Assembly: GCF_002395745.1 (NCBI RefSeq)
Contig: NZ_DGUN01000027.1
Coordinates: 19,958-83,957 of the forward strand
DNA length: 64,000 bases
Direction: 5' to 3'
Origin: Fibrobacter sp. UBA4309
GTDB lineage: Bacteria > Fibrobacterota > Fibrobacteria > Fibrobacterales > Fibrobacteraceae
Position numbers and translations under genes: made by a program. This document shows, one piece after another, positions 17,863 to 64,000 of the stretch (its first letter is position 1; the number at the start of each line of letters is the position of its first letter). The notes under the pieces are model-generated. The model had not been told where the DNA came from. It worked only from the letters and a program-made list of their open reading frames with translations, and did not search any database.

Positions 17863-19512
17863 ATGGCTGCAGAAAAAGAATTCAAGAAGGTTGCCGTAAT
17901 CGCGGGCGCAGGCCCTGCAGGATTGACGGCGGCGCTGGAACTGTTGCGCACTACCGACGTGAAGCCGGTTATTTACGAAGCCGAGGACGTTGTCGGCGGT
18001 ATTTCCCGCACCGCGCGCTACAAGGGCAACCGCATGGACATCGGCGGCCACCGCTTCTTTAGCAAGAGCGATACCGTGATGGACTGGTGGCAGGGAATTC
18101 TCCCGCTCCAGGGTGCCGCCAGCAAGGACGACATCGCCATTGGCCGCAGCGTTCCGCTGACGGAAGGCGGCCCCGACCCGGAGAAGACGGACTACGTGAT
18201 GCTCTGTCGCAGCCGCCTCTCGCGCATCCTCTTCTTGCGCAAGCTTTTTGATTATCCGGTGAGCCTGAATGGCGACACCATCCGCAATCTCGGTCTCTGG
18301 CGCATGTTCAAGATTGGCATGAGCTACCTCAAGGTGCAGCTGTTGCCCGCCCGCAAGGAGAAGAGCCTCGAAGATTTCATGATCAACCGCTTTGGCGTGG
18401 AACTCTACCGCACGTTCTTCCGCGACTACACCGAGAAGGTGTGGGGCGTGCCGTGCAGCAAGATTAGCCCCGACTGGGGTGGCCAGCGCATCAAGGGCCT
18501 TTCCATCACCAAGACGGTAATCCATGCGCTCAAGCAGATTTTTGCAGGCAAGAAGAAGGCCGAGGCCGGTGCCGCAAGCGGTGCGGACATCCGCCAGAAA
18601 GATACCGAGACGAGCCTCATCGGCCAGTTCCTGTACCCGAAATTCGGCCCCGGCCAGCTCTGGGAAACGGTCGCCGAGAAAGTGAAGGAAATGGGCGGCG
18701 AAATAAACATGTACACGAAGGTCGTGGGCGTGAACCGCGACGCGAGCGGCAAGCGCGTCGAGAGCGTCGTCGTCGAGAGCATGGACAATACGGGCGTCTT
18801 TATGCACGAAACTATTCCGTGCGATTACTTCCTCAGCACCATGCCGGTCAAGGAACTCGTTGCCGCGATGGACGGCGAGAAGAATCCCGTGCCCGCCGAA
18901 GTCAAGCGTATCGCCGATGGCCTCGTGTACCGCGACTTCATTACCGTGGGGCTCTTGCTCGACAAACTGCTCATCAAGAATCCGGCAAAGCCGGGAACGC
19001 CCGAAAGCAAGCTCAAGTTCGTTGCCGACAACTGGATTTACGTACAGGAATCCGACGTGAAGCTCGGCCGCATCCAGATATTCAACAACTGGAGCCCCTA
19101 CCTGGTAGCCGACCCCGAGAAGGTGTGGATAGGCCTCGAATACTTTGCGACCGAGGGCGACGAGATGTGGCGCATGCCCGACAAGGACTTTATCCAGTTC
19201 GCCATCGACGAACTCGACAAGATTGACGTGGCAAGGCCCGAAGACGTGCGCGACTCCGTGGTGTTCCACATCAAGAAGGCGTACCCCGCCTACTTCGGTA
19301 CCTACGGCGAGTTCGACAAGATCCGCGAATACGTGGACCCGGTGGAGAACCTCTTCCTCATGGGCCGTAACGGCATGCACAGGTACAACAACATGGACCA
19401 CAGCATGCTCGCCGCCATGGAAGTCGTGAAGTGCATCCGCGAGAATTCTACCGACAAGACTGCTCTCTGGAACGTGAACAGCGAAGAAGAATACCACGAA
19501 GGCAAAAAGTGA
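17863..19512 (+). CDS. FAD-dependent oxidoreductase (COG1232 / UDP-galactopyranose-mutase-like)
   Basis: [35 protein letters not shown]. Confidence 0.8.
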
Positions 19513-21248
19513 TGCGCAGCATTCTGAAACGGGAAGTGCCTTTGCTCGTCGGGATGCTCCTGACGGCAATCCTTTCTTACGTGATGACGCCCAAGATAGA
19601 CAATGTCCTGTTGACGCGACAGGGGATGGAATCAAGGGCGGACATGCCGCTCAGCGTTCCCATGGGGGAAGGCGAGAACTTCTCGGTGACGATGGACGTG
19701 TTCACGGGCGGCGCCGGGGATTTCTTCTTGGATATCCATCCCGACGATTGCGTTACGGATTTAAAAGTGAACGGGGTCGAACTCCCGTTCAGGAGGTATC
19801 CGGGTTTTTGTAGCTGGAATACCGGGTTCATTTTGGGCAAGAAGGAAATCCAGAAATATGTCGGTTCGGACCTTTCGAGGATGCGTATCGACATGTCCCT
19901 GCGCAACAATGGCGGCCTGGGTGGCATCACGGCAGTGGTGAAGGGAAGCGGCTTCTTGCTGAGTGCCGTTTCCGTGCTGTTTTTCCTGTTGCTCGGCGGC
20001 CTGATTTTCTCTGTCGGATCCCGTTTCAAAATTGACTATCGTTTGTTGCTGGTGTTCTTTGTCGGTCTCCTGTTGCGCGTGGGCTACACGCAGGCTACGT
20101 TCTACGACGAACGCGGGCACGATACGGGCGGCCATGTCCACTACATCCAGATTATAGCGAAAGACCACCATATCCCCGCATCGAACGAATGCTGGACTTG
20201 TTACCACCCGCCCGTGTACTACGTCGCCAGCGCCGGTATCTGGAATCTTTTCGACTGGTTCGGCTGTTCGCCCCAGAACGCGGTCAAGTGGTTCGATTTC
20301 TTCATTTCGCTGTTGGCGCTGGCCTTTGGCCTGGCATGTATCGGCAATGTCCTCTGGGGGCAGCCGCGCTACATTGCCGCGTTGCTGTGGAGCGTGTGGC
20401 CAAGCTTTATACTGGCTTCGCCGCGGCTCGGTAACGACATCCTGTTCTATGCGATGCACGCCGTGGCGCTGTGGGGCTGTCTCCGCTACATCAAGACGAG
20501 CGCGGGCAAGTATTTCTTGACGGCCGTTTTGTCGGCTGCCGTTGCCTACTGGACAAAGTCTACCGCCGTCGTGACGTTCGGCATAGTCGGCGTTACCGTG
20601 CTTGTCCATACGCTCCCGAGAGTGTTGCGTGGCCTTGGCCGCATGGAATGGGCTTCCGTGGCTGTGCTTGTCGTGGTGGGCGCGATTGTCGTGATTCGCG
20701 TTCTCGGCGGAGACGTTGTCGCCAATGCCGGCGGTAACGACAACACTGTCCTGATCCAGAACCATCCGGGCAATTTCCTCTTCTTCGATATCCGTGCGTT
20801 CCTCGTGAATCCGTATATCGACCCGTGGCACGATGAGCTGGGCCGCCAGTTCTTCTGGAATTACCTAGCCAAGACATCCCTGTTCGGCGAATTCAAGCTC
20901 CTGGAAACGCTTGCGGGGCGCTGGCTGGCCTCTATCGTCAGCGCATGCTTCCTTGTCTTGCTTGCCTTCGGCATCCGTGGCTTCTGGAAGTCCCGTTGGA
21001 CAAAGCTGAAGGTAATCCTTGCGGCACAGGCGCTGTTCTTCTTCTCTGCCATGATTGCGCTCCGCCTCAACTATCCGTTCTCCTGCAGCAACGATTTTCG
21101 CTATATCGTCCCCGTGCTGTTGAGCTGCCTGCCTTGGGTGGCCGAAGGTATTGCCGGTGACGGATCCACGAAGGGGCTCAAGGCGATCGGATTTTCGGTG
21201 ACGGCCGTTTTCGTGGTGTGTTCGTCTATTCTAATGTTGAGCCTCTAA
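19512..21248 (+). CDS. GT-C glycosyltransferase (GT39/ArnT-like) with an extracytoplasmic N-terminal beta domain
   Basis: HDTGGH..YI, YHPPVYY, GNDIL, many TMs. ATG overlaps the upstream TGA, so 19512 is preferred to 19431. Confidence 0.75.
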   Translation: MRSILKREVPLLVGMLLTAILSYVMTPKIDNVLLTRQGMESRADMPLSVPMGEGENFSVTMDVFTGGAGDFFLDIHPDDCVTDLKVNGVELPFRRYPGFCSWNTGFILGKKEIQKYVGSDLSRMRIDMSLRNNGGLGGITAVVKGSGFLLSAVSVLFFLLLGGLIFSVGSRFKIDYRLLLVFFVGLLLRVGYTQATFYDERGHDTGGHVHYIQIIAKDHHIPASNECWTCYHPPVYYVASAGIWNLFDWFGCSPQNAVKWFDFFISLLALAFGLACIGNVLWGQPRYIAALLWSVWPSFILASPRLGNDILFYAMHAVALWGCLRYIKTSAGKYFLTAVLSAAVAYWTKSTAVVTFGIVGVTVLVHTLPRVLRGLGRMEWASVAVLVVVGAIVVIRVLGGDVVANAGGNDNTVLIQNHPGNFLFFDIRAFLVNPYIDPWHDELGRQFFWNYLAKTSLFGEFKLLETLAGRWLASIVSACFLVLLAFGIRGFWKSRWTKLKVILAAQALFFFSAMIALRLNYPFSCSNDFRYIVPVLLSCLPWVAEGIAGDGSTKGLKAIGFSVTAVFVVCSSILMLSL

Positions 21249-21249
21249 A

Positions 21250-22992
21250 ATGTTGATATTCCGGTACGAAAAAAATTTGAAGCTGTTCCTTTTCTGGGCG
21301 TTCGCCTGCATCCTGGTCAATTTCTTTTGCACTTTCGGTGAATCTTACGATGGTGACCAGAGCTTTTGGGTGGGGTGGGTGCAGCAGCTGATAGATGGCG
21401 GCTTCGGCAACTTCAAGGGCAATTACCCGCCGCTGTACGTGTTCTGGCTTTGGGTTGTCGCACAAATCCATTCCATATTCGGCATTGCCGTCGGCAAGAC
21501 GTTCTTCTTGAAGTTCATCTGCCTTTGGCCGGTCTACTTTGCGCACCTGTTCCTTGTGGATTGGCTTTGCCGTATCGTCGGGAAGTTCGGGGCCCCGCGC
21601 TGGAAACAGCATTTGATGATTGGCTTTGTGGCGCTGAATCCGGCGATACTCTTGAACGGCCCTATATGGGGCCAGGTGGACTTGGTCCCGGTAGTCTTGG
21701 CGATGCTTTCGATTTACTGCATCTCTCGCCAGGGGCTCATCAAGTGGGCGTCCATGTTCTTTGTCCTGTCGGTGTTGACCAAGTTCCAGATGATTATGTT
21801 CTTGCCCGTGTTTGGCGGGCTGTTCCTCCGTCACTGGCGCGTTTCGTGGAAAGGGCTTCCCTTTGCCGCCCTGTCCGTCGTGATTGTCCTGCTTCCGTTC
21901 TTTATCGGCGGCAATCTTGTCGAGATGCTTGGCAGGGCGTATGTGCAGACTTCTAGCCAGTATCCCTATGCCACGTTCAATGCGGCGAACTTGTGGATGC
22001 TGCTTGCCGGGAACGTGGCTCCGGACAACGTCCCCATCTGGGGAATCAAGGAGGCCGGCCTGGGATTCCTGCTGAAACCGAGTGTCCTTGGCCGCGTACT
22101 GTTTGTCGCCGTCTCGATTTTTGTTCTGGTCAAGAGCCTGCTATGCAAGAATATCCGTACGGCATATGCCCTATGCACCTTGAACGCGGTCGCGTTTTTT
22201 GTCGTGTTGCCCGGCATGCATGAACGTTACCTGATGTATGCGATTCCGGCAGCGCTATGCTGGAGCATCTGGGATATGAAACGTGGCGGTGTCGCATGCG
22301 TTTTTGTTTCCCTGGTGGCGTCGCTGAACGTGAATATCATCAATACCTACAAGGGGTACGATGTCTGGATGATAACCTCGGCGCTGGGCGCCGTCGTGCT
22401 GGTTGCGATCCTGTTGGTTGTCGCGTTCCCCGGGTTGCCGAAAAAAACAGTCGGCGTTGTATCCAGGTTGTCCTTGCCATCGTTTGTCCCGTATGTCGTC
22501 TTGTCGGTAATCTTGCTGGTGGAATGCTCGGTACTCATGTTCCAGTTGCGCCCGGTAGTTGTCCCTGCGAACGAAAAGAACGTGCTGGTGACGGACTTGC
22601 CGGTATTGCGCGCGGATCAGAGTTACAAGAAACCCATGGTGAACGAATCCGTGGAAGGACGTTTCTTGACATCGGGTGATCGCCTGTACAAGAACGGTCT
22701 CGGCACGCATGCGCCTTCGCACATGACATATGAACTTCCCGAAAATGCCGATTCGCTGTTTATCGGTGCGGGTATTGACGACGAGGTCTATGACCACGGC
22801 AGTGCCGTCTTCATGATCCACCTGGACGGCGTAAATGTGTGGACAAGCCGAGTCCTGCAAGGCCGTGACAGGCCGACCTTTGTGGCGATTCCTGTAAACG
22901 GGGCGAGAAAACTGGAACTCATTACCGACCCGGATGGCGACAACAATAGCGACCATACGGACTGGCTGAATGCCTATGTAAGGGTGCGTTAG
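21250..22992 (+). CDS. GT-C (GT87/PIG-M-like) glycosyltransferase with a C-terminal NPCBM/NEW2 domain
   Basis: NYPPLY, LNPAILL..PIWGQVD, MHERY. C-terminal KNGLGTHA...GIDDE...DHTDW. Confidence 0.8.
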   Translation: MLIFRYEKNLKLFLFWAFACILVNFFCTFGESYDGDQSFWVGWVQQLIDGGFGNFKGNYPPLYVFWLWVVAQIHSIFGIAVGKTFFLKFICLWPVYFAHLFLVDWLCRIVGKFGAPRWKQHLMIGFVALNPAILLNGPIWGQVDLVPVVLAMLSIYCISRQGLIKWASMFFVLSVLTKFQMIMFLPVFGGLFLRHWRVSWKGLPFAALSVVIVLLPFFIGGNLVEMLGRAYVQTSSQYPYATFNAANLWMLLAGNVAPDNVPIWGIKEAGLGFLLKPSVLGRVLFVAVSIFVLVKSLLCKNIRTAYALCTLNAVAFFVVLPGMHERYLMYAIPAALCWSIWDMKRGGVACVFVSLVASLNVNIINTYKGYDVWMITSALGAVVLVAILLVVAFPGLPKKTVGVVSRLSLPSFVPYVVLSVILLVECSVLMFQLRPVVVPANEKNVLVTDLPVLRADQSYKKPMVNESVEGRFLTSGDRLYKNGLGTHAPSHMTYELPENADSLFIGAGIDDEVYDHGSAVFMIHLDGVNVWTSRVLQGRDRPTFVAIPVNGARKLELITDPDGDNNSDHTDWLNAYVRVR

Positions 22993-48737: not shown

Positions 48738-50156
48738 ATGTTATTTTCAGAACTTCCCCTGGTCAATCCCCTCCAGCGAGCAGTCCGTGCCGTTGGTTAC
48801 GAACAGCCCACCCCCATTCAGGAACAGTCCATCCCGAGCCTTTTGGAAGGCAAGGACCTTCTGGGCATCGCCCAGACGGGTACGGGGAAGACGGCGGCGT
48901 TCGCGCTCCCGATTCTGCAACGGCTGCTTGATTCCGGGAAGTTCCGCGCACCCAAGACATGCCGTGCGCTGATTCTTTTGCCGACGCGCGAGCTCGCTAT
49001 CCAGGTGGAAGAATGCTTCAAGCAGTACGCCCAGTTTACCGCGATTTCGACTACCTGCATTTTTGGAGGCGTGAGCGACGCTTCGCAAAAGCGCAACCTG
49101 ATTCGAGGTGTCGACGTCCTGGTCGCGACTCCCGGGCGCCTGCTCGACCTGATCGGCCAGAAGGCTGTTTCGCTGAAGGCATTGGAATTCTTTGTGCTCG
49201 ACGAAGCCGACCGCATGCTCGACATGGGATTCATCCACGATATCCGCAAGGTGGTGGCGCTGCTCCCGCAGGTGCGACAGAACTTGTTCTTCAGCGCGAC
49301 GATGCCCGATGATATCACGAAGCTTGCCGCGACGATCCTGCGCCCGAATCCGGTTCGAGTGGAAGTGGCTCCGCAGAGCACGCCGATTGAACGCATCCGC
49401 CAGGAACTCTACCGCATCGACAAGCGCCGCAAGGGCGCCTTGCTCAAGGAACTTTTGCTTGCGCATCCCGAAATGAAAAAGGTGCTGGTGTTCAGCCGCA
49501 CCAAGCACGGAGCCGACAAGATTACGCGCGTGCTCGAGAAGGCGGGAATCAAGTGCTCCGCGATTCACGGCAACAAGAGCCAGAACAGGCGCCAGGAAGC
49601 CCTCGGGAATTTCAAGAAGGAATCGATCCGCGTGCTGGTGGCTACCGATATTGCCGCCCGCGGCATAGACGTGGACGATGTCTCGCATGTGTTCAACTAC
49701 GACTTGCCCGATGTGCCCGAGACGTTCGTGCACCGCATTGGACGTACCGCCCGTGCAGGCAAGGACGGCATCGCGATTTCGTTCTGCGCTCCTGATGAAG
49801 AACAGGACTTGCGCGCTATTGAAAAGCTCACGCGCATCCGCATTCCGGAAGGCGACAAGGCGATTTACGAGAAGCTGCCGCCGCAGCAGAAGGAAACGCC
49901 CGAAAGCGAGATGAGGAATGCCCGCGGAAGGTTGCCGCGCCGCGAAAATCCGGCGCACGGGAAGCCCGCTCAGCCCAAGACTGCACAAAAAAATGCGCAG
50001 CCTAAGCCCGCGCAAAAACCGGCACAGCCCGCTCGTGGGGAACATCCCGCGCCGTCGAATAACGCTCCCGCTCAGGGGAATGCCCCGCGCCACCGTCGCC
50101 GCAACCGCCCAGGTTCAAGGGCCCGCCGCCGCATGCGCGAAGCTGCGTCTAACTAA
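48738..50156 (+). CDS. rhlE: DEAD-box RNA helicase (RhlE-like)
   Basis: PTPIQ, AQTGTGKT, PTRELA, LDEADRMLDMGF, SAT, HRIGRTARAG. ATG 48738 follows TAAATTTG. Confidence 0.93.
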   Translation: MLFSELPLVNPLQRAVRAVGYEQPTPIQEQSIPSLLEGKDLLGIAQTGTGKTAAFALPILQRLLDSGKFRAPKTCRALILLPTRELAIQVEECFKQYAQFTAISTTCIFGGVSDASQKRNLIRGVDVLVATPGRLLDLIGQKAVSLKALEFFVLDEADRMLDMGFIHDIRKVVALLPQVRQNLFFSATMPDDITKLAATILRPNPVRVEVAPQSTPIERIRQELYRIDKRRKGALLKELLLAHPEMKKVLVFSRTKHGADKITRVLEKAGIKCSAIHGNKSQNRRQEALGNFKKESIRVLVATDIAARGIDVDDVSHVFNYDLPDVPETFVHRIGRTARAGKDGIAISFCAPDEEQDLRAIEKLTRIRIPEGDKAIYEKLPPQQKETPESEMRNARGRLPRRENPAHGKPAQPKTAQKNAQPKPAQKPAQPARGEHPAPSNNAPAQGNAPRHRRRNRPGSRARRRMREAASN

Positions 50157-50163
50157 CCGTAGA

Positions 50164-51174
50164 TTATTCTACCAGACTGTAGCGCTGGCTCCTGCCGCCC
50201 TTGGGATTCGCCTTCACAATGCCTTTCTTGATGAGACTCTGTATTTCGCGGAGCGCGGTGTCGTGGCTTGTTCCAAAAACCCTGGCGACGTCCTTCGCTG
50301 TAAATTCTCGCGGAATTTCTCCAGCGAGGGCTGCTTCCAGAAGAACCTGTTCTCGCTCGCCGGTGGGCGTGCCTGTGAGTTTGTTCATAAAGGTGGCGTG
50401 ACGGATTCCTGCCTGGAGTTCTTTTTTGCGGTTTTCTATTGCCGAGTCGATTTGCGAAAGGAACCACAGAATCCAATCGGTAAGGTCTCCGTTGCCGCAC
50501 TGGGCCTTGTTCAGCGTGCGAAAATATCTGTCGCGGTTTTCCAGGATTTGCCTGTTGAGCGAAAACGGCAGATGGTTCGTCTTTTGTGCACGGCAGAGTT
50601 GCAATGCCGTGATGGTACGGATGAGCCTGCCGTTCCCTTCGCGGAACGGGCTTATCGTGAGGAACCAGAAATGCGCAATCGCGGCCTTGATGGTGCCGTC
50701 CATCGGGGACTTTTCGAACCAGTCAAAAAAATGTCCCATTTCGGTCTGGAGCCTTTCGGGGCCGGGGCCTGCAAAGCGCATGTTTTCGGAGACGACTTCG
50801 TAGGAGGTCTCACGGTAGCCGGGAGTCTTGTGGCCGGTCAGTGCAGAATGCCAGCCGAACAGGCGCTCCGGAGTGAGCGGGTTTGCACTGTTCTCGATAG
50901 CGCCGAGGTAGTTGCGGATATGTACGGAGTGGGCCTGGGAACGGAGTGCGAGATCTTTTGCTACATCGTCGAGATCCAGAGCGTACCCGTCAATAGCGAA
51001 GTTGGCGACGATGTCGTCGGTGATGACTCCCGTTTCGAGATCCTTGGAGTTGACAAAGGTCAGGAGACCTGCCAGTCGCCCTTCCTCGAAGCACGTTTTG
51101 CCCAGGGCGTCGAGCACGCGCTTGTTGTCGAATCGGAAATGGGTCCAGTCCGGGAATTGGTGGATAAAAAGCAT
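50164..51174 (-). CDS. Fic-family protein (DUF4172-Fic-wHTH) with a non-canonical active site
   Basis: FIHQFPDWTHF N-terminus, TISPFREGNGRLIR, C-terminal HTH with GGRSQRY. True start is probably 51174. Confidence 0.85.
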   Translation of the reverse strand: MLFIHQFPDWTHFRFDNKRVLDALGKTCFEEGRLAGLLTFVNSKDLETGVITDDIVANFAIDGYALDLDDVAKDLALRSQAHSVHIRNYLGAIENSANPLTPERLFGWHSALTGHKTPGYRETSYEVVSENMRFAGPGPERLQTEMGHFFDWFEKSPMDGTIKAAIAHFWFLTISPFREGNGRLIRTITALQLCRAQKTNHLPFSLNRQILENRDRYFRTLNKAQCGNGDLTDWILWFLSQIDSAIENRKKELQAGIRHATFMNKLTGTPTGEREQVLLEAALAGEIPREFTAKDVARVFGTSHDTALREIQSLIKKGIVKANPKGGRSQRYSLVE

Positions 51175-51237
51175 ACGGATAATATAAATCTTTTTAACGC
51201 AAGCGGTGCGTAGAAAAAAGATGCTATATTTTGAAAA

Positions 51238-51398
51238 AGTTTCCTGTGCCCTGAAAAGCCTTGAGAGAACCCCGTGAAAGCCGGGGACGGTCGCGCCGCT
51301 GTAAGGGAGGACGAAACCGGCAAGAACCAATGTCCGGAAACGGATGTGAAGGAGCCGGGAGTAGGGCGATCCCCGAGTCAGAAGAACTGTGGGAAACT
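51238..51398 (+). ncRNA. Cobalamin (AdoCbl-type) riboswitch
   Basis: GAGAA-CCCCG-TGAAAG-CCGGGG, GCCGCTGTAA, GAAG, AGTCAGAAGAAC B12 box. P1 AGTTTCC/GGAAACT. Lies upstream of a TonB receptor. Confidence 0.88.
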
Positions 51399-51413
51399 GT
51401 TGAACGAGGAAAG

Positions 51414-53414
51414 ATGCGAACGACGTCCTTCTGCAGGACCGCAGTGTACGCGGTCTTTTTGTACTGTGCCTGCTCATGGGCACAGGAGGTACAAGACCTT
51501 GGCACGACCGAGGTCTCGGCTCCCGTTTCTGCGGGCGTTGCAGCTGCCGGTGCGGGCTATACCGAAATTCTTCCTGCGGCGTGGGAAGGGAAATCCCTGA
51601 CAGCGGCAGACCTGCTTTCGGCCCTTCCCGGGGTACAGGCGTACAAGCAGGGCGGCCTCGGGAGTTTCCAGTCGGTATCCATCCGCGGCATTGCCGCAAG
51701 AAACATCTTGATTTGTGTGGACGGCGTGCCGTTGAACGATGCGAGCGGCGGTGCCGTGAACCTTTCGTCCATCGATTTGAACCAGATGGAAAAGGTGGAA
51801 GTCTACAAGGGAAACGTGCCGGCGAAGTTCGGCGTGTCGGGCCTTGGCGGTGCCGTGAATTTTGTCACCAGGAATGCCGTAAAGAGGGGCGGGCGAGTCC
51901 TTGCCGCCTATGGGACGCACAATACGTGGGAAGGCGCCTTCCAGGTAAGTTCCCCGGTAACGGACAGCGTCATGTTCGCTTCTTCGTTTGCCACGCGGCA
52001 TTCCGACAACGACTACGAGTATACGAACAGGAACGGGACGCAGTATAACGATGACGACGACTACACGGCGATTCGCGAAAACGCCCAATATACGGATGTG
52101 TCCGGTAACGTACAGTTCCGCATGCTGCACGGCAACGGCTATTTTTCGACTTTGTCCGTAACGGCATCGCGTTTTGAGGGAGGGAACCCCGGCAAGGAAG
52201 AACAGCAGACCAAGGTGGCCAAGTTCGTGGGCGAGTCGGCGCTTTTGCGCTATGGTCTGGAATCGGCGGGTTACCTGGACGACAGGCTCTTTTTGGCTGG
52301 CGGAGTGTCGGGCCGTTTCGACAAGAATCTCTCTAGCACTTATTACCCGTTGGACCATGTGGGTTATGGCAATTCCCGGTTCCTGCAATATGGGGCGGCC
52401 ACGTACAAGCTTGTTCCCGAGATTTCGGCGGAGTTCTCTCCCGTAAATCGCCTGAAAACGGAAGCGCGTGTCGCGGGAGAATGGGAACGTGCCGAGGCGC
52501 GCGGCGATTCCAAGGACTGGGCGCTAGACCGTTGGACTTTGCTTGGTTCCGGCGATTTGTATTTACAGGTTTTCACGTATGCAGGCGTGGGCAGCGAAGG
52601 CTCCGTCCAGTTCTTGAAAGACCGCCTGGACGACGGTGTTTTTGTACAACCGTCCGGTTCGCGGATTCTGGAAGATGCCGGCGAGCGCGACGCGACGTTG
52701 TCCGGACGTATCTATTCCCGTTTCGGCACATCGGAATCGCCGCTGAGCGGGGAAGTTTCCATAGGACGTTTTTACCAGCAACCTGCCTTGATGGAACTCT
52801 ATGGCACGTTCCCCGGGGCACTCTCGAATCCGGACCTCAAGCGCGAAAAGGCGACCCGCTTCGAGGCCTCAGGGCAGTTTATGTTTCCGGGACGCCGGAC
52901 ATCGTTGCGGGCGGCGTATTTCGAGTCGCATATCGAAGACGGAATATGCTGGGTAATCTCGGTAGAACTCTTGCGTGCCGAGAATATCGCACGGTCGCTT
53001 GTCCGTGGCGCGGAATTCGAACTGAACAGCAGCCCCTCCAGGTTCATGGATATCGTGCTCCGCGCGACGTTCCAGAAGACGGAGGACCGCTCGCATTCCA
53101 ACAGTTACAACGGGAACATGCTCCCCGGCGAGCCGGCACGGGCGTATTATGCCGGCGCGACCTTGCATCTGCCGCTGCACCTTGATTTGGCATGGGTGTC
53201 GGAATGGCGCAGCGTCATCTACAGCGACCGCGCAAACCGTATGGATCAACCCGCCGTGGCTACACACCGTGCCGACCTCGCATATAACCCGTTCGAAAAG
53301 ACTCGGCTTGCGTTCGCAGTGGCGAATATCACCGACGAGACGTACCGGAATTTCTACACGCCCTTTCCCATGCCGGGCAGGGAATACAAGTTCACAATCA
53401 TACAGGGGTTCTAG
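51414..53414 (+). CDS. btuB: TonB-dependent vitamin B12 receptor (BtuB-like)
   Basis: LPGV, SIRG, VDGVPLN, EKVEVYKG plug motifs, NPDLKRE, PGREYKF..GF end. Follows the riboswitch. Confidence 0.85.
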   Translation: MRTTSFCRTAVYAVFLYCACSWAQEVQDLGTTEVSAPVSAGVAAAGAGYTEILPAAWEGKSLTAADLLSALPGVQAYKQGGLGSFQSVSIRGIAARNILICVDGVPLNDASGGAVNLSSIDLNQMEKVEVYKGNVPAKFGVSGLGGAVNFVTRNAVKRGGRVLAAYGTHNTWEGAFQVSSPVTDSVMFASSFATRHSDNDYEYTNRNGTQYNDDDDYTAIRENAQYTDVSGNVQFRMLHGNGYFSTLSVTASRFEGGNPGKEEQQTKVAKFVGESALLRYGLESAGYLDDRLFLAGGVSGRFDKNLSSTYYPLDHVGYGNSRFLQYGAATYKLVPEISAEFSPVNRLKTEARVAGEWERAEARGDSKDWALDRWTLLGSGDLYLQVFTYAGVGSEGSVQFLKDRLDDGVFVQPSGSRILEDAGERDATLSGRIYSRFGTSESPLSGEVSIGRFYQQPALMELYGTFPGALSNPDLKREKATRFEASGQFMFPGRRTSLRAAYFESHIEDGICWVISVELLRAENIARSLVRGAEFELNSSPSRFMDIVLRATFQKTEDRSHSNSYNGNMLPGEPARAYYAGATLHLPLHLDLAWVSEWRSVIYSDRANRMDQPAVATHRADLAYNPFEKTRLAFAVANITDETYRNFYTPFPMPGREYKFTIIQGF

Positions 53415-53454: not shown

Positions 53455-54603
53455 ATGAAAAACAATCTCTCAAAAACGAAAGGTTCCATCGTGAAGGGTC
53501 TCGCCCTTGCCTTCGGCCTTTCTTCTTTCGTCATGTTCACTGCTTGCGGTGACGACTCCTCCAGTTCTTCTTCTCCCGAAGGAAACGAAGGCGAAGAACT
53601 CTCCCTGACGGGTGCCGTTTTCGGTTCCGACTACAAGACCGGTGAACTACGCTGGATTGACAAGGACGGAAAGATTTCGGAAAAGAGTCTTTCGTTCCAT
53701 CAGGATTCCAAGGTGCTTGTTGACGGTGCCGACCTGTACGTGCTGGAACGCATGGGTGCCGACAACATCTCGCTGGTCGCCCCCGAAAAGCTGGATTCCG
53801 ATGGTGAAAAGGCGGTGGTGTGGCAGGTTTCCCTGGACGACGGCGCCAACCCGGTGGACATGGAATTCGACGGTGAGAACGCCTGGGTCGCGCTGCAGAA
53901 CGCCGATTCCCTGGTCAAGATTTCTACGGCTGACGGCAAGGTGGTCAAGTCCATCAAGACGGGCAAGTTCGCTTACGAAGGCGAAAAGTCTCCTTATGTC
54001 GCCGACATCGAACTGAACGACGGAAAGCTTTATGTGCTGATGCAGCGCTACACGATGGATGCCGAGACCTGGGTGACGACTTATCCCAAGGGACTCCTTG
54101 CCATTTACGACGCCTCCACGGGTGACCTGAAGGATACCGTGCAGTTGCTTAACCAGAACCCGACTGCCATGGCTTTCTTTGACGGTGCCGTTTATGTGGC
54201 AAGCCAGGGTGAATACAACGCTTCTTACGGAACCGATGCCGATGACAAACGCGGTATCGAGAAGGTGAACCTCAAGGATAAGAAATCCGAATTGGTTATT
54301 TCTGGTGAAAAGCTCGGTGGCGGCGTCTATGCGTTCGTTGCAGACAAGGGAACCGCCTATGCCGCAGTCTATAAGGGCTATGGCGATGTCCCTCTGGCCA
54401 AGATTGACCTTGCCGCGAAAAAGGTCGAAACGGTTAAGGGTGTTGCCGATGCAGAAGGCTCCCTCTCCGCGAAGGATGGCAAGGTCCTGATCGGTGATCG
54501 CAGTTCTGGTGCCGAGGCGGTGCTGATGTACGACGGTTCCAAGGTGTCCAAAATCGAGAGCCCGAAGGGCGCTCTTCCGGCATACAGCGTTGTGCTGTTC
54601 TAA
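53455..54603 (+). CDS. Beta-propeller lipoprotein, BtuG-like B12-binding candidate
   Basis: Lipobox FTAC-GDD with a Ser linker, repeated blades (LYVL, NPVDM, KLYVL, NPTAM, VYV). Co-oriented with btuB. Confidence 0.72.
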   Translation: MKNNLSKTKGSIVKGLALAFGLSSFVMFTACGDDSSSSSSPEGNEGEELSLTGAVFGSDYKTGELRWIDKDGKISEKSLSFHQDSKVLVDGADLYVLERMGADNISLVAPEKLDSDGEKAVVWQVSLDDGANPVDMEFDGENAWVALQNADSLVKISTADGKVVKSIKTGKFAYEGEKSPYVADIELNDGKLYVLMQRYTMDAETWVTTYPKGLLAIYDASTGDLKDTVQLLNQNPTAMAFFDGAVYVASQGEYNASYGTDADDKRGIEKVNLKDKKSELVISGEKLGGGVYAFVADKGTAYAAVYKGYGDVPLAKIDLAAKKVETVKGVADAEGSLSAKDGKVLIGDRSSGAEAVLMYDGSKVSKIESPKGALPAYSVVLF

Positions 54604-59495: not shown

Positions 59496-60869
59496 CTAAA
59501 AGAGCCATTTCACGGCTATGCTTCCGCGTGTCGGGCGTAACGATTTGTTTACGTTTTTCTGAAAAGTCGTCGTGACGGAAAGGTTCAGGAACCCCGCGGC
59601 GAAGTGGGCTTCGTTCTGTAACTGCATCCGTTTCGACGGCCTTGCGTCCGGCGCGACGAGGATGAGCTTCGCGTAGTTCCTTGGCGAGTCCCTGTAGCGC
59701 AGGAACGTCTCGATACGCGGCGGCCCGGGGCCGTCCCTTCTTGAATACCTCTCTCTCGCGGATGTCCCTGCCGTCCAGTTGTCGGAAAAGCTGGATTGAA
59801 CGCTTCCCTTCCAGTCGCTTTTTTCACAGTCGTCCCGCAGTTCGATACATGTCGCTGAAAAGCCTCCCCGGAATATTTCCGGTCCGCTTTGTAGTGTGGC
59901 CTTGAGGCGGGTGGAAACGCTGTCGCCATGGATCGGGTTGATGATTCTCGTGTTGAATTCGAATTTTGTGTTGTATATTTCGTGTGCCGTGAACCCGACA
60001 GTCTGCGCACCCCACAGGCGGCTTTGGCGGATGGTGGAACTCAGCCGGGCCATCGCTGGTATGGAGTCTCCGTGAATGTAGGCGGTTGTGCTCCAGGCGA
60101 ATGCGATAGGCTCGTTTTTTGATTGTCGTTTTCGGTGTCGCAGTTCTATCTTGGCGAGCGGGGCGTCCTGATCTTTCTGGTACCACACGCTGGCTTTGCC
60201 AAAACCGAAATCGGCCTGTAATGAGGCGGAGCGGAATTCGTCATGGCGTTCCCTGCGGGCGTCCCAGTAGGTGGCGGTTATGGAAGCCTGTTTGCCGAAC
60301 ACGTATCCGAGCCCGGCGCGGGCGATGGTGGACGTATCCAGTGAAGCCGAAATTCGGAAGTTGCCGATGGGATAGAGCAGGGTCGTACCCCAAAGCGTGT
60401 CGAGCGGAATATGGCTATGGAGTTCGTTTGTAGAAAAATCCCCGAAGTGCGCTTCGCTATCGCCGTTCTTGTACGAAAGAGTCCTTTGCGAACCGAGCCT
60501 AAGAGTGTAGCGGTAGAACGATAGGTGCAGTTCTTCCCTGTGGCTTTCCAGGTTGCCGGAAGAATCGAGCCTGGCCTTGACGAGCAGGTATCCTGTGGGT
60601 TTCAGGGAAGGCCGTTTCGGTTCTTTCTGTTTTGGGGACTTGACTTTTTTCGGCGGGGCGTCTTCGCAGGGCTCCTGTGCGTAGACTTCTGCCAGCAGGC
60701 ACGCTTCGCCGGTGTTGCCTTCGTCCAGTAGCAGCAGGATCTCGTCCGCTTCTTCGGGCGTGATGATGCCTGCATCCCACCAGTCGAATACCTGGGCGTC
60801 GGTCACGGCCGCCTGCGATATCCCCAGGAACAGCCCGAGTATGGAAATCTTGAAAAAAATCCGGTCCAT
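59496..60869 (-). CDS. Hypothetical outer-membrane beta-barrel protein with a short N-terminal helical domain
   Basis: Signal peptide, alternating beta pattern, C-terminal IAVKWLF beta-signal. Confidence 0.55.
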   Translation of the reverse strand: MDRIFFKISILGLFLGISQAAVTDAQVFDWWDAGIITPEEADEILLLLDEGNTGEACLLAEVYAQEPCEDAPPKKVKSPKQKEPKRPSLKPTGYLLVKARLDSSGNLESHREELHLSFYRYTLRLGSQRTLSYKNGDSEAHFGDFSTNELHSHIPLDTLWGTTLLYPIGNFRISASLDTSTIARAGLGYVFGKQASITATYWDARRERHDEFRSASLQADFGFGKASVWYQKDQDAPLAKIELRHRKRQSKNEPIAFAWSTTAYIHGDSIPAMARLSSTIRQSRLWGAQTVGFTAHEIYNTKFEFNTRIINPIHGDSVSTRLKATLQSGPEIFRGGFSATCIELRDDCEKSDWKGSVQSSFSDNWTAGTSARERYSRRDGPGPPRIETFLRYRDSPRNYAKLILVAPDARPSKRMQLQNEAHFAAGFLNLSVTTTFQKNVNKSLRPTRGSIAVKWLF

Positions 60870-61716: not shown

Positions 61717-61783
61717 GTCATCCTTGGCCTGTCATCCTCCTCGCTTCACTCGGAGGATGACTCGGTAATCGCGGCGTAGCCGC
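61717..61783. repeat. REP-like elements and a GTA-triloop mini-hairpin between convergent genes
   Basis: GTCATCCTTGGCC at 61717, GTCATCCTCC/GGAGGATGAC at 61731-61761, GCGGC-GTA-GCCGC at 61771-61783. Confidence 0.8.
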
Positions 61784-63969
61784 TAGAACTTGAACAGCAT
61801 GCCGAAGCGCATCTGGCCGTCACGTACGCCGTCGTGATCACCCACGTCCTTGATGGTCGCGAAGTCGAACTGCAGCACGTCGCTGAGCATAAAACCGAAA
61901 CCGAAGTCCACTTCGTTACGCTTGCCGGTATCGTCGTAGAGGTAGCCGAGGCGAAGTGCGATGGTGTTCGAATAGATGAATTCCGTACCGACATTGAACA
62001 CGCCCTGCATCAGGGAGTTCTTTGCCGCGGTCAGTCCGTCACCTTCGCGTTCCGGATTCACGATGGATTTCCAGCATGCGATGTAGAACGGTTCAGGGTC
62101 GCCCTTGTCGTCGTCGTAAACGACTTCTCGGTTGTAGTCGGCGGCGATAATCCACTTGTAGTCGGCGAGGCTCAGCAGCTCGTAAGAAAGGCCGAGACGC
62201 CAGGTCAATGGAATCGGGTCTTCGATCGTCTTGTCCACATAGTAGACGCTCGGACCGATGTTCGCGAGAACGAGTGCGAGGTTCAGCTTGTCGACGATGA
62301 GGTTCTTCTTGAGTACGCCGATGTCGAACGCGTAGCCGAATGTTGTCGCTTCTTCTTCGCCGGTTGAGGCTCCGGAACTCAGGTCGGAATAGAAGAACTT
62401 GATAGAAAGGCCCAGACCCCAGTCGTTCGGGAACCTTGTGCCGTAGCTGATGCCGCCGACGATTTCGGAACTGTTGTAGGCAACCAGGTCATCGGCGTCC
62501 ACATCGCCCGAAACGACGGTAGAACCGAAGCTGACGAAGTTCACGGAGAATCCGATGGTGCCCCAGTCGTTCAGCGGAATGGTAAGGCCGCCGTACAGGT
62601 GGTAGAGATCGGGAATGTTCAGGATGGGCAGGAGCTTTTCGTAGAATGCCGTAAGCTGGTAGTCGGCGTCCTTGTACTGTTCCATGCCCTTGGAGGTGCT
62701 GAACCAGACGTCGTTGCCTTGCGGGAGGACTGCCCAGACCTTGTTGCTACTGAGTCCGTTTCCCGAATGGAAATGCGTCCACTCGTCATCTTTTTTGACG
62801 GAACCTTCTTCTTCGGCTGCGCCGCGTTCAAGTTCTGCCTTGCGTCCGCTGGCGGTCGCATAGTCGGGGAGGTGCTTCCACACGCCCTTGTCCGTAGCGA
62901 TCCAGATGCTGCCGCGCTGGTCGACAGAAATGGAATTGACGGTGTTGTCGGCGAACTGGACCTGTTCCCACTTGCGGAGGGTGAAGTGGCTGAGGCCGCC
63001 CTTGTGTGCCGCCCAGATGTGTCCGGAACTGTCTACGGCGAGATCGGTCGCATGCAAGTCCATGATGCCGTCTTCTTCGTTGAACAGGCTCCAGCGGTCC
63101 TTGTCGTTTACGCTCTTTTTCGGGACGAGACGCGCGATGCCGGCGCCGTCGGCGGCCACATAGAGCTCCTTGCGGTTTTCGGACCATACAAGCGCGTTGA
63201 TTTTCTGGCTCGGGAGGACCTTGCCCTTCTGTTCGAACTGGCCGTTGCGGTAGAGGAACAGGCCGTTCTCCGTTCCGATCCACAGGGAAGCGCCCTGGCT
63301 TGCGAGCGCGGAGATGCGGTGCACGCCGAGTTCGGATTCGTAACTTTTCCAGCCCTTGCCGTCAAAGCGGAAAAGGCCCTTCGGGGTGCCGACCCAGAGT
63401 TTTTCTGTGCGGTCGTCGTACAGGACTGCGGTGACGGTGTCGTTGACCACCAGGTTCCAGGGCATCTTGACTTCGACCACGTGCGATTCGTCATCGGCGT
63501 TCTTGATGTCGTTGAATTTTTTCACCTGGCGGGAGTATTCGTCCAGTCCGCGTTCGGTCCCTACATAGACTTTTACGGCGTCGCGCACCTTGGCATTGCC
63601 CTGGAGCGTGACGGAGTGGTAGTCCACCCACTGCTCGCCGTCGAATTTCAATATGCCTTCTGCCGTACCTGCCCAGAGTTCGCTCTTGGCGAAGAATCCG
63701 TTCTTGGAACGACTGGTCATGCTGGTAAAGAAGGGCGCTTCCTTGGTTTCCTTGGTATAGGATACGCGCCATTCGTCGGCCAGGGGGCCGAAAGCGAGCC
63801 CCGCCGGGTTGTAGTACATCGCGGTAGCGTCGTCTGCCAGTGCAGCACCGGCTTCGCCCATGCCCAACTGGCGGGCGCCGACAGGCATTTCCAGGGTGAT
63901 GATCGCCGAACCGGCTGCAAAAGAAATAGCAGGTGCCAAAAGAAGGGCTGATAATAGGGATTTACGCAA
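61783..63969 (-). CDS. PorV/PorQ-family (T9SS) outer-membrane barrel with an inserted beta-propeller
   Basis: GARQLGMGEA..DDATAMYYNPAGLAF, propeller blades (LWVGT.KGL, IWIATDKGV), then PorV-like strands ending RFGMLFKF. TTG start. Confidence 0.82.
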   Translation of the reverse strand: MRKSLLSALLLAPAISFAAGSAIITLEMPVGARQLGMGEAGAALADDATAMYYNPAGLAFGPLADEWRVSYTKETKEAPFFTSMTSRSKNGFFAKSELWAGTAEGILKFDGEQWVDYHSVTLQGNAKVRDAVKVYVGTERGLDEYSRQVKKFNDIKNADDESHVVEVKMPWNLVVNDTVTAVLYDDRTEKLWVGTPKGLFRFDGKGWKSYESELGVHRISALASQGASLWIGTENGLFLYRNGQFEQKGKVLPSQKINALVWSENRKELYVAADGAGIARLVPKKSVNDKDRWSLFNEEDGIMDLHATDLAVDSSGHIWAAHKGGLSHFTLRKWEQVQFADNTVNSISVDQRGSIWIATDKGVWKHLPDYATASGRKAELERGAAEEEGSVKKDDEWTHFHSGNGLSSNKVWAVLPQGNDVWFSTSKGMEQYKDADYQLTAFYEKLLPILNIPDLYHLYGGLTIPLNDWGTIGFSVNFVSFGSTVVSGDVDADDLVAYNSSEIVGGISYGTRFPNDWGLGLSIKFFYSDLSSGASTGEEEATTFGYAFDIGVLKKNLIVDKLNLALVLANIGPSVYYVDKTIEDPIPLTWRLGLSYELLSLADYKWIIAADYNREVVYDDDKGDPEPFYIACWKSIVNPEREGDGLTAAKNSLMQGVFNVGTEFIYSNTIALRLGYLYDDTGKRNEVDFGFGFMLSDVLQFDFATIKDVGDHDGVRDGQMRFGMLFKF

Positions 63970-64000
63970 GTTGCCTCCAATCGGGGACGTCGTAGGTGTT

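Follow-up and report, generated by a model that had tools for sequence, protein, structure and literature searches.

A PorV/PorQ-family outer-membrane protein of Fibrobacter with a beta-propeller, probably periplasmic, inserted between plug and barrel

PorV (LptO), an outer-membrane barrel protein of the Bacteroidota type IX secretion system (T9SS), binds type A cargo with a C-terminal sorting domain (CTD) at the cell surface and, as a shuttle that starts from the translocon, delivers it to the PorU attachment complex (PMC5562754; 10.1101/2020.05.13.094771). PorE, a protein with a propeller, bridges the PorP barrel and peptidoglycan in the periplasm (PMC9143113). The literature on Fibrobacterota goes no further than the statement that a T9SS 'may be present' (PMC11285876) and the occurrence of TIGR04183 tails (PMC6851124). 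The basic tails in which cellulases of Fibrobacter succinogenes end overlap TIGR04183 and are no longer present after maturation of the proteins (PMC6851124). In the present study a stretch of 64,000 nucleotides of Fibrobacter sp. UBA4309 (contig NZ_DGUN01000027.1, positions 19,958 to 83,957; hereafter the window) was analysed for a gene at positions 61783-63969 of its reverse strand. This gene codes for a protein of 728 amino acids (aa) of the PorV/PorQ family, in which a beta-propeller is found between the plug and the barrel. The family label was already known from databases. The architecture is new in the sense that no description of a PorV-type barrel with a periplasmic propeller was found in the literature searched, and the same literature held no description of T9SS core genes in Fibrobacter.

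The barrel gene, an uninterrupted reading frame of 728 codons, starts with TTG. The encoded protein has the same length and end as more than 100 full-length homologues, and 61783-63969 is therefore regarded as an intact gene. The order of domains is signal peptide, plug, propeller and 14-strand barrel. The plug is the best-conserved part of the protein (majority fraction 0.87) and the propeller is no less conserved than the barrel, while the signal peptide is poorly conserved and has a low predicted local distance difference test score (pLDDT) in the structural model. A scan for promoters and terminators gave no signal exceeding that of shuffled sequences. The gene and its parts are as follows:

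61783..63969, reverse strand: whole gene of the 728-aa PorV/PorQ-family outer-membrane protein with inserted propeller; stop codon at 61783-61785
63913..63969, reverse strand: signal peptide, residues 1-19 (MRKSLLSALLLAPAISFAA), cleaved probably after SFA; assigned by eye from the sequence, without a predictor
63790..63912, reverse strand: plug (hatch), residues 20-60, containing GARQLGMGE and the NPA motif of the FadL family (YYNPAGLAF); from the NF033709, PorVQ2 and Toluene_X matches
62668..63789, reverse strand: Reg_prop-type beta-propeller insert of about seven blades, residues 61-434, predicted to be periplasmic; from profiles, model and alignment
63475..63603, reverse strand: degenerate LysM-like beta-alpha-alpha-beta unit in the first blade, residues ~123-165; from the model and hhalign
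61786..62667, reverse strand: 14-strand beta-barrel, residues 435-728, ending in ...RFGMLFKF; from NCBIfam, the PDB profile search, the model and Foldseek

The protein passed the cut-off of the NCBIfam model for the PorV/PorQ family (PorV_fam NF033709, 158 bits versus 90), the match being split by the insert into an N-terminal part and residues 436-728. The cut-offs of Pfam PorV (PF19572, 32.6 bits versus 27) and Pfam Reg_prop (PF07494, 50.5 bits versus a gathering cut-off of 20.4) were also passed. Furthermore, residues 26-59 matched PorVQ2 of NCBIfam and residues 31-60 weakly matched the Pfam FadL/TodX family (Toluene_X). A profile built from 40 homologues was run against the sequences of the PDB. 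The middle of the protein (~170-440) retrieved propellers of hybrid two-component-system sensors, 4a2l (E 3e-28) and 3ott, and residues 472-728 retrieved PorV of Flavobacterium johnsoniae (6h3i_F, E 4e-13); TodX appeared in the same search at E 0.39. The AlphaFold2 model of the 728-aa protein (mean pLDDT 79, predicted template modelling score (pTM) 0.77) contains about seven four-stranded blades in residues 66-433 and 14 long strands in residues 438-727. Foldseek with this model matched PorV 8gl6_F (TM-score 0.64 on the target, root mean square deviation 4.5, 318 columns), followed by sensor propellers and PorZ (5m11), with weaker matches to TodX and FadL (TM-score ~0.4). The E-values of these family and fold matches are far beyond chance. 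The 728-aa protein belongs to the PorV/PorQ family and carries a Reg_prop propeller, and its predicted structure is a 14-strand FadL-type barrel with an N-terminal plug. An initial annotation, made from the letters of the window alone, had described a PorV/FadL-like barrel in which blades of the two-component-regulator type at 62662-63789 separate the hatch from strand 1. These results bear out each element of that description, the alignment placing the propeller at essentially the same position.

The boundaries of the insert were set by alignment with the nearest insert-free relatives (~390 aa, 32-36% identical), which have about a dozen residues at this position. In the 728-aa protein the insert sits between YYNPAGLAF (52-60) and QLTAFYEKLLP (438-448), and hence comprises residues ~61-434, in total 374 residues. 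Its first blade contains helices at residues 128-136, 142-152 and 158-162, flanked by strands in the AlphaFold2 model. When this helical unit was compared by hhalign with a Zixibacteria segment that is positive for Pfam LysM, the two were found to match with 97.9% probability (E 3e-13). LysM is a module that typically binds peptidoglycan. The Pfam LysM model (PF01476) recognized the Zixibacteria segment (E 5e-8) and had no match in Fibrobacter segments 108-176, even at E 10. Since the Fibrobacter unit is negative with Pfam LysM and yet homologous by profile-profile comparison, it is termed here degenerate LysM-like.

The side of the membrane on which the propeller lies was approached via the pattern of strand junctions. 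Odd junctions between barrel strands are 7, 9, 10, 16, 40, 4 and 11 residues long and even junctions 5, 3, 7, 3, 3 and 4 residues. Outer-membrane barrels have their short turns and their C-terminal aromatic residue on the periplasmic side. In the 728-aa protein, strand 1 starts on the short-turn side of the barrel, where the C-terminal Phe (...LFKF) is also located. The final propeller strand stops at residue 433 and barrel strand 1 begins at residue 438 in the AlphaFold2 model. As the 4 residues in between are too few to span the membrane, the propeller should share the side on which strand 1 starts, i.e. the periplasm. The plug with its FadL-family NPA motif enters the barrel from the periplasmic side. 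The N-terminal strands 66-72 and 81-87 appear to close the last blade, which would bring entry and exit of the insert together. A periplasmic location also fits because Zixibacteria relatives bear a true LysM in the same insert. Conservation of predicted loops, turns and propeller was also considered as a clue to topology and gave no clear contrast. Taken together, a periplasmic propeller is the best-supported topology as predicted, in line with what the initial annotation had judged probable. The AlphaFold model that it had recommended as a check is consistent with a propeller at the junction of plug and strand 1 of a 14-strand barrel.

More than 270 full-length homologues were found, and those with 55-95% identity are sourced as Fibrobacter, Fibrobacteraceae and Fibromonadales. 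Most are named 'PorV/PorQ family protein' by their sources and NCBI, and some database labels read 'Two component regulator propeller'. A scan with one genome per species returned 377 relatives. The best 80 of these 377 are all Fibrobacter-type; among them are the copy of Fibrobacter intestinalis ATCC 43854 (71% identical) and, closest to the window protein (94-95%), those of rumen metagenome-assembled genomes (MAGs) labelled F. succinogenes. FSU_2254 (UniProt D9S423) is a putative orthologue. An exhaustive HMMER search over cluster representatives added relatives of 700-813 aa with 33-50% identity, including proteins of Chitinispirillaceae, as well as relatives of 850-1050 aa, sourced as Zixibacteria, which combine PorV plug, Reg_prop repeats, LysM and PorV barrel. 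In the Zixibacteria proteins of 857-1050 aa (P0153, P0292, P0394) the insert measures ~530-720 aa and occupies the same site. BLASTP of the window protein against a Zixibacteria-type protein gave an unbroken alignment of residues 167-728 (E 8e-46) that runs through the junction of propeller and barrel, and a P-L-x-x-E-W entry motif after NPAGL is common to the Fibrobacter and Zixibacteria proteins. Judged by sequence comparison, Fibrobacterota and Zixibacteria have homologous inserts, which occupy one and the same site. The survey of PorV homologues that the initial annotation had called for thus finds the insertion well beyond Fibrobacter, mostly in proteins annotated as PorV/PorQ family, and contradicts its view of a Fibrobacter-specific variant: the same architecture occurs in Fibromonadales, in Chitinispirillaceae and, with longer inserts, in Zixibacteria.

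The descent of the insert was studied in a tree calculated from plug and barrel columns alone. Insert-free proteins are found in at least two places among the fused proteins in this tree, and an approximately unbiased (AU) test rejected a placement of all fused proteins on one side of a branch (p 7e-5). Repeated loss of the insert from a fused ancestor appears the simpler reading, because the insert is homologous and found at a single site. This reading is tentative, since the tree is unrooted, was obtained by a quick search and leaves out Bacteroidota PorV. Insert-free relatives from Chitinivibrionales (P0210, P0223, P0251, P0269 and others) have a C-terminal extension past the last strand with consensus L..W...D..W, unlike the fused proteins, which end in the usual terminal Phe. 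Several of the gene copies were found in unexpected assemblies. A Fibrobacter gene copy (70% identical) together with its partner gene is present on contigs L078, L080, L083, L085, L086 and L090, of which the titles refer to Eggerthellaceae, Oscillospiraceae, a Methanomethylophilaceae archaeon, Senegalimassilia, Alistipes onderdonkii and Sodaliphilus ('H076xx-L1_cleanbin'). Most likely these bins are mislabelled or contaminated by a Fibrobacter intestinalis-like genome. MAG RUG11357 contains the gene twice, on separate contigs (L012, L058), with 95% and 84% identity to the window copy; this bin probably mixes two Fibrobacter strains.

Gene context in the more distant relatives provides the link to the T9SS. 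A Peptidase_C25 (PorU-type) gene coding for ~1300 aa lies directly upstream of the fused gene in all five Zixibacteria-type loci, in the way that porV follows porU in Bacteroidota. One C25 copy, that of locus L003, was scored on the PorU sortase model NF033707 and reached 760 bits versus a cut-off of 420. Downstream of the fused gene these loci encode an M6-like protein of ~1090 aa, and for 4 of the 5 copies a T9SS sorting tail is on record. The copy at L003:12589-15852 resembles the 'T9SS-dependent M6-like inactivated metalloprotease' NF052323, at 410 of the 600 bits required and hence below cut-off. Further downstream follow two DUF5683-like genes (family on record in 3 of the 5 loci), a gene for an NHL-like protein and one for a product of ~1100 aa without a family, and then Omp85 where the fetched locus extends so far (L003). 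In Chitinispirillaceae the fused gene is preceded by an overlapping gene for a 203-aa membrane protein and followed by an M6-like gene (L004:12508-16179; 355 of 600 bits on NF052323, below cut-off), the product of which shows no sorting tail. The insert-free Chitinivibrionales paralogues have no T9SS neighbours in their gene context. It is because the genes of relatives adjoin a PorU-type gene, in five of five Zixibacteria-type loci with one copy passing the PorU cut-off, that a link with the T9SS is proposed.

Among described proteins, PorV of F. johnsoniae and Porphyromonas gingivalis (6H3I and 8GL6, chain F) is the best barrel match of the Fibrobacter protein in sequence as well as fold, sharing the 14-strand FadL-family barrel and the N-terminal plug. 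The Fibrobacter protein differs by the 374-residue propeller between plug and strand 1, and its gene does not adjoin porU. PorP-PorE of P. gingivalis may be the closest functional analogy, in that a PorV-like 14-strand barrel is joined to a propeller module in the periplasm. However, PorP and PorE are separate proteins whereas the Fibrobacter form is one polypeptide; TPR and OmpA_C-like domains are present in the lipoprotein PorE, and the cargo served by PorP is that with a type B CTD. The Zixibacteria proteins have the plug, the barrel, the insertion site and a homologous propeller and LysM-like unit in common with the Fibrobacter form, but their insert is longer, their LysM is recognizable by Pfam and their gene is part of an operon headed by porU; no such linkage to porU exists for the shorter Fibrobacter form. 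The propeller repeats belong to the same family (PF07494) as those of the Bacteroides hybrid two-component sensors BT4663 (4a2l) and BT4673 (3ott), which are likewise periplasmic. These sensors carry two propellers and Y_Y_Y on an inner-membrane kinase, while the Fibrobacter protein has a single propeller inside an outer-membrane barrel and no signalling domains. FadL and TodX channels likewise have 14 barrel strands and an NPA motif in the plug; they match far less well than PorV does, and the analysis gave no evidence of transport.

Directly upstream of the barrel gene lies a gene for a single-pass membrane protein, of which the window contains only the 3' end. Its position in the window and further copies, coding for 188-203 aa, are:

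63962..64000, reverse strand: 3' end of the partner gene located upstream; these 39 bases, with which the window ends, code for the C-terminus NTYDVPDWRQLA*; the remainder lies outside the window, and the gene overlaps the start of the barrel gene by 8 nucleotides
L012:9442-10008, L001:9442-10008 and L004:9435-10046: further copies of the partner gene

The partner gene (188 aa) is present in all 81 Fibrobacter loci and in nearly all of them shows the 8-nucleotide overlap. Its product is homologous to the 203-aa protein of Chitinispirillaceae (28% identity, E 1e-24). The barrel gene is translationally coupled to this conserved 188-203-aa membrane protein in Fibrobacterota. In the AlphaFold model of the partner (pLDDT 84) one transmembrane helix (residues 2-29) precedes a globular domain; H139, P144-P145, L148-G149-C150 and C152 are invariant. 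The protein matched no family of Pfam, NCBIfam or PHROG, and its model had no PDB fold match at E < 1. A resemblance of its PP-x-x-LGC-x-C pattern to phage Mu gpF was considered and dropped for want of support. In the Zixibacteria-type loci, where the PorU-type gene is directly upstream, a counterpart of the 188-aa partner is not evident, although no specific search was made.

The reading that best accounts for these data is that of a cargo-handling PorV-type barrel which is tethered in the periplasm; we assign it a probability of roughly 55%. Its structural part is very probable, and T9SS function in Fibrobacter, suggested by homology, context and topology, is an even call. A propeller of about seven blades with one degenerate LysM-like unit takes the place of the linker between plug and strand 1, and would hang directly beneath the barrel in the periplasm. 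The barrel may act like Bacteroidota PorV and receive proteins with C-terminal sorting domains at the cell surface, which in Fibrobacter could be the cellulases with their BTD/FPm-1/TIGR04183 tails. The propeller would fix the barrel to a periplasmic partner; this may be the cell wall, reached by way of the LysM-like unit, the small membrane product of the upstream gene or some other machinery. If the propeller is tied to such a fixed partner, the protein would be a tethered platform and not a freely diffusing shuttle, at odds with the 'shuttle' model for PorV (PMC5562754). It is hypothesized that the propeller binds cargo or glycans and that the protein has a role in cellulase export. A more far-reaching and rather speculative proposal, which we hold to be unlikely, is that the PorV-type carrier of Fibrobacterota and Zixibacteria forms a fixed link across the envelope. 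Its propeller would dock on the upstream membrane protein in Fibrobacterota, or on the cell wall via LysM in Zixibacteria, and through this link the export and anchoring of the Fibrobacter cellulases with tails would be positioned or gated. In this proposal the fused form would be ancestral to this branch of the family, and insert-free barrels would have arisen by loss.

Several results weigh against a tethered, cargo-handling PorV. The 728-aa protein did not reach the cut-offs of the PorV equivalog NF033710 (95.6 versus 250 bits) or the PorQ equivalog NF033711 (36.4 versus 220 bits), nor that of PorV2 NF052325 (29.8 versus 325 bits). The PorV/PorQ family model is broader than these T9SS equivalogs, and the protein passes at the level of the family only and not as PorV proper. 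A Zixibacteria homologue likewise remained below the PorV equivalog cut-off (185.7 versus 250 bits). The 10-kb flanks of the 81 Fibrobacter loci contain no PorU, M6-like, DUF5683, NHL or giant-barrel genes; the neighbours are rsmG, a gene for a putative barrel of 457-506 aa, queH and radical-SAM and helicase genes, a housekeeping environment. Furthermore, the topology is argued from the order of chain and strands and from loop lengths, not from the geometry of the model. Peptidoglycan binding by the Fibrobacter LysM-like unit is doubtful, since the unit is not recognized by Pfam LysM and is without the usual motif. The T9SS PorV variant that the initial annotation had seen here therefore stands as a member of the PorV/PorQ family; its identification as PorV proper is tentative, in view of the equivalog score and of the lack of porU within 10 kb in 81 loci.

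The same results leave room for other functions. One is a FadL-like channel for uptake or sensing, in which the barrel admits a small hydrophobic or glycan-derived compound that is captured by the periplasmic propeller. The FadL NPA motif of the plug and the weak sequence and fold matches to TodX and FadL are in agreement with such a channel, as is the lack of a T9SS gene nearby in Fibrobacter loci for a protein that passes the NF033709 family model and not the T9SS equivalogs. The best propeller matches, moreover, are the glycan-sensing periplasmic domains of BT4663 and BT4673, and sensor propellers of Bacteroides hybrid two-component systems bind oligosaccharides. However, PorV is a far better match than FadL or TodX (E 4e-13 versus 0.39; TM-score 0.64 versus ~0.4), in Zixibacteria the gene of the homologue has a PorU-type gene on one side and a CTD cargo gene on the other, and no conserved transport partner gene lies alongside, which makes a channel improbable. 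About equally improbable is a structural envelope tether, a barrel tied via its propeller to the cell wall or to an inner-membrane partner without any handling of cargo. The porU linkage in Zixibacteria speaks against such a tether, as does the finding that the plug and several predicted surface loops (e.g. 572-587, majority fraction 0.87) are the most conserved parts, which is unexpected for a mere anchor. True LysM units in the inserts of relatives, coupled translation with the gene of a conserved single-pass membrane protein at all 81 loci, the housekeeping neighbourhood and the presence of the gene in every Fibrobacter species genome among the 80 loci returned would on the other hand suit an anchor.

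It was also considered whether the propeller is exposed at the surface as a built-in PorZ that presents glycan or lipopolysaccharide to the sortase. The fold match to PorZ 5m11 and a weak NCBIfam match to PorZ over residues 331-363 are in favour of this idea, but the score on NF052228 (22.3 versus 260 bits) was far below cut-off. The 4-residue link to strand 1 lies on the short-turn side. Moreover, exposure at the surface would require a folded domain of 374 residues to pass through the outer membrane although the protein has no CTD and finishes in a barrel strand. A surface-exposed, PorZ-like propeller was rejected on these topological grounds and is regarded as very improbable.

Some further genes in the window deserve mention. 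The neighbouring protein of 457-506 aa is encoded just past rsmG on the same strand as the PorV-like gene (window 59496-60869, reverse strand; L001:13186-14706) and was detected in 49 of the 81 Fibrobacter loci. It has a signal peptide and a C-terminal ...KWLF, without a match in Pfam or NCBIfam, and is probably an outer-membrane barrel. At 51261-53414 (forward strand) a TonB-dependent receptor of 717 aa with a Plug domain is encoded, flanked by open reading frames at 49918-51213 (forward strand, 431 aa) and 53455-54603 (forward strand, 382 aa) without Pfam or NCBIfam matches. Elsewhere in the window, a 580-aa protein with a C-terminal NPCBM/NEW2 glycan-binding domain (21250-22992, forward strand) adjoins an open reading frame for a PMT_2-like glycosyltransferase (19431-21248, forward strand).

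The export of tail-bearing cellulases by F. succinogenes, and the way in which outer membrane and vesicles retain them, have yet to be explained (PMC6851124). Being cultured, unlike Zixibacteria, Fibrobacter makes the architecture described here accessible to experiment. The fused propeller would give a periplasmic interaction surface to a protein that is considered to act at the cell surface. In at least two phyla, a PorV-type barrel permanently fused to a predicted periplasmic propeller speaks for a fixed station and against the picture of a free shuttle.

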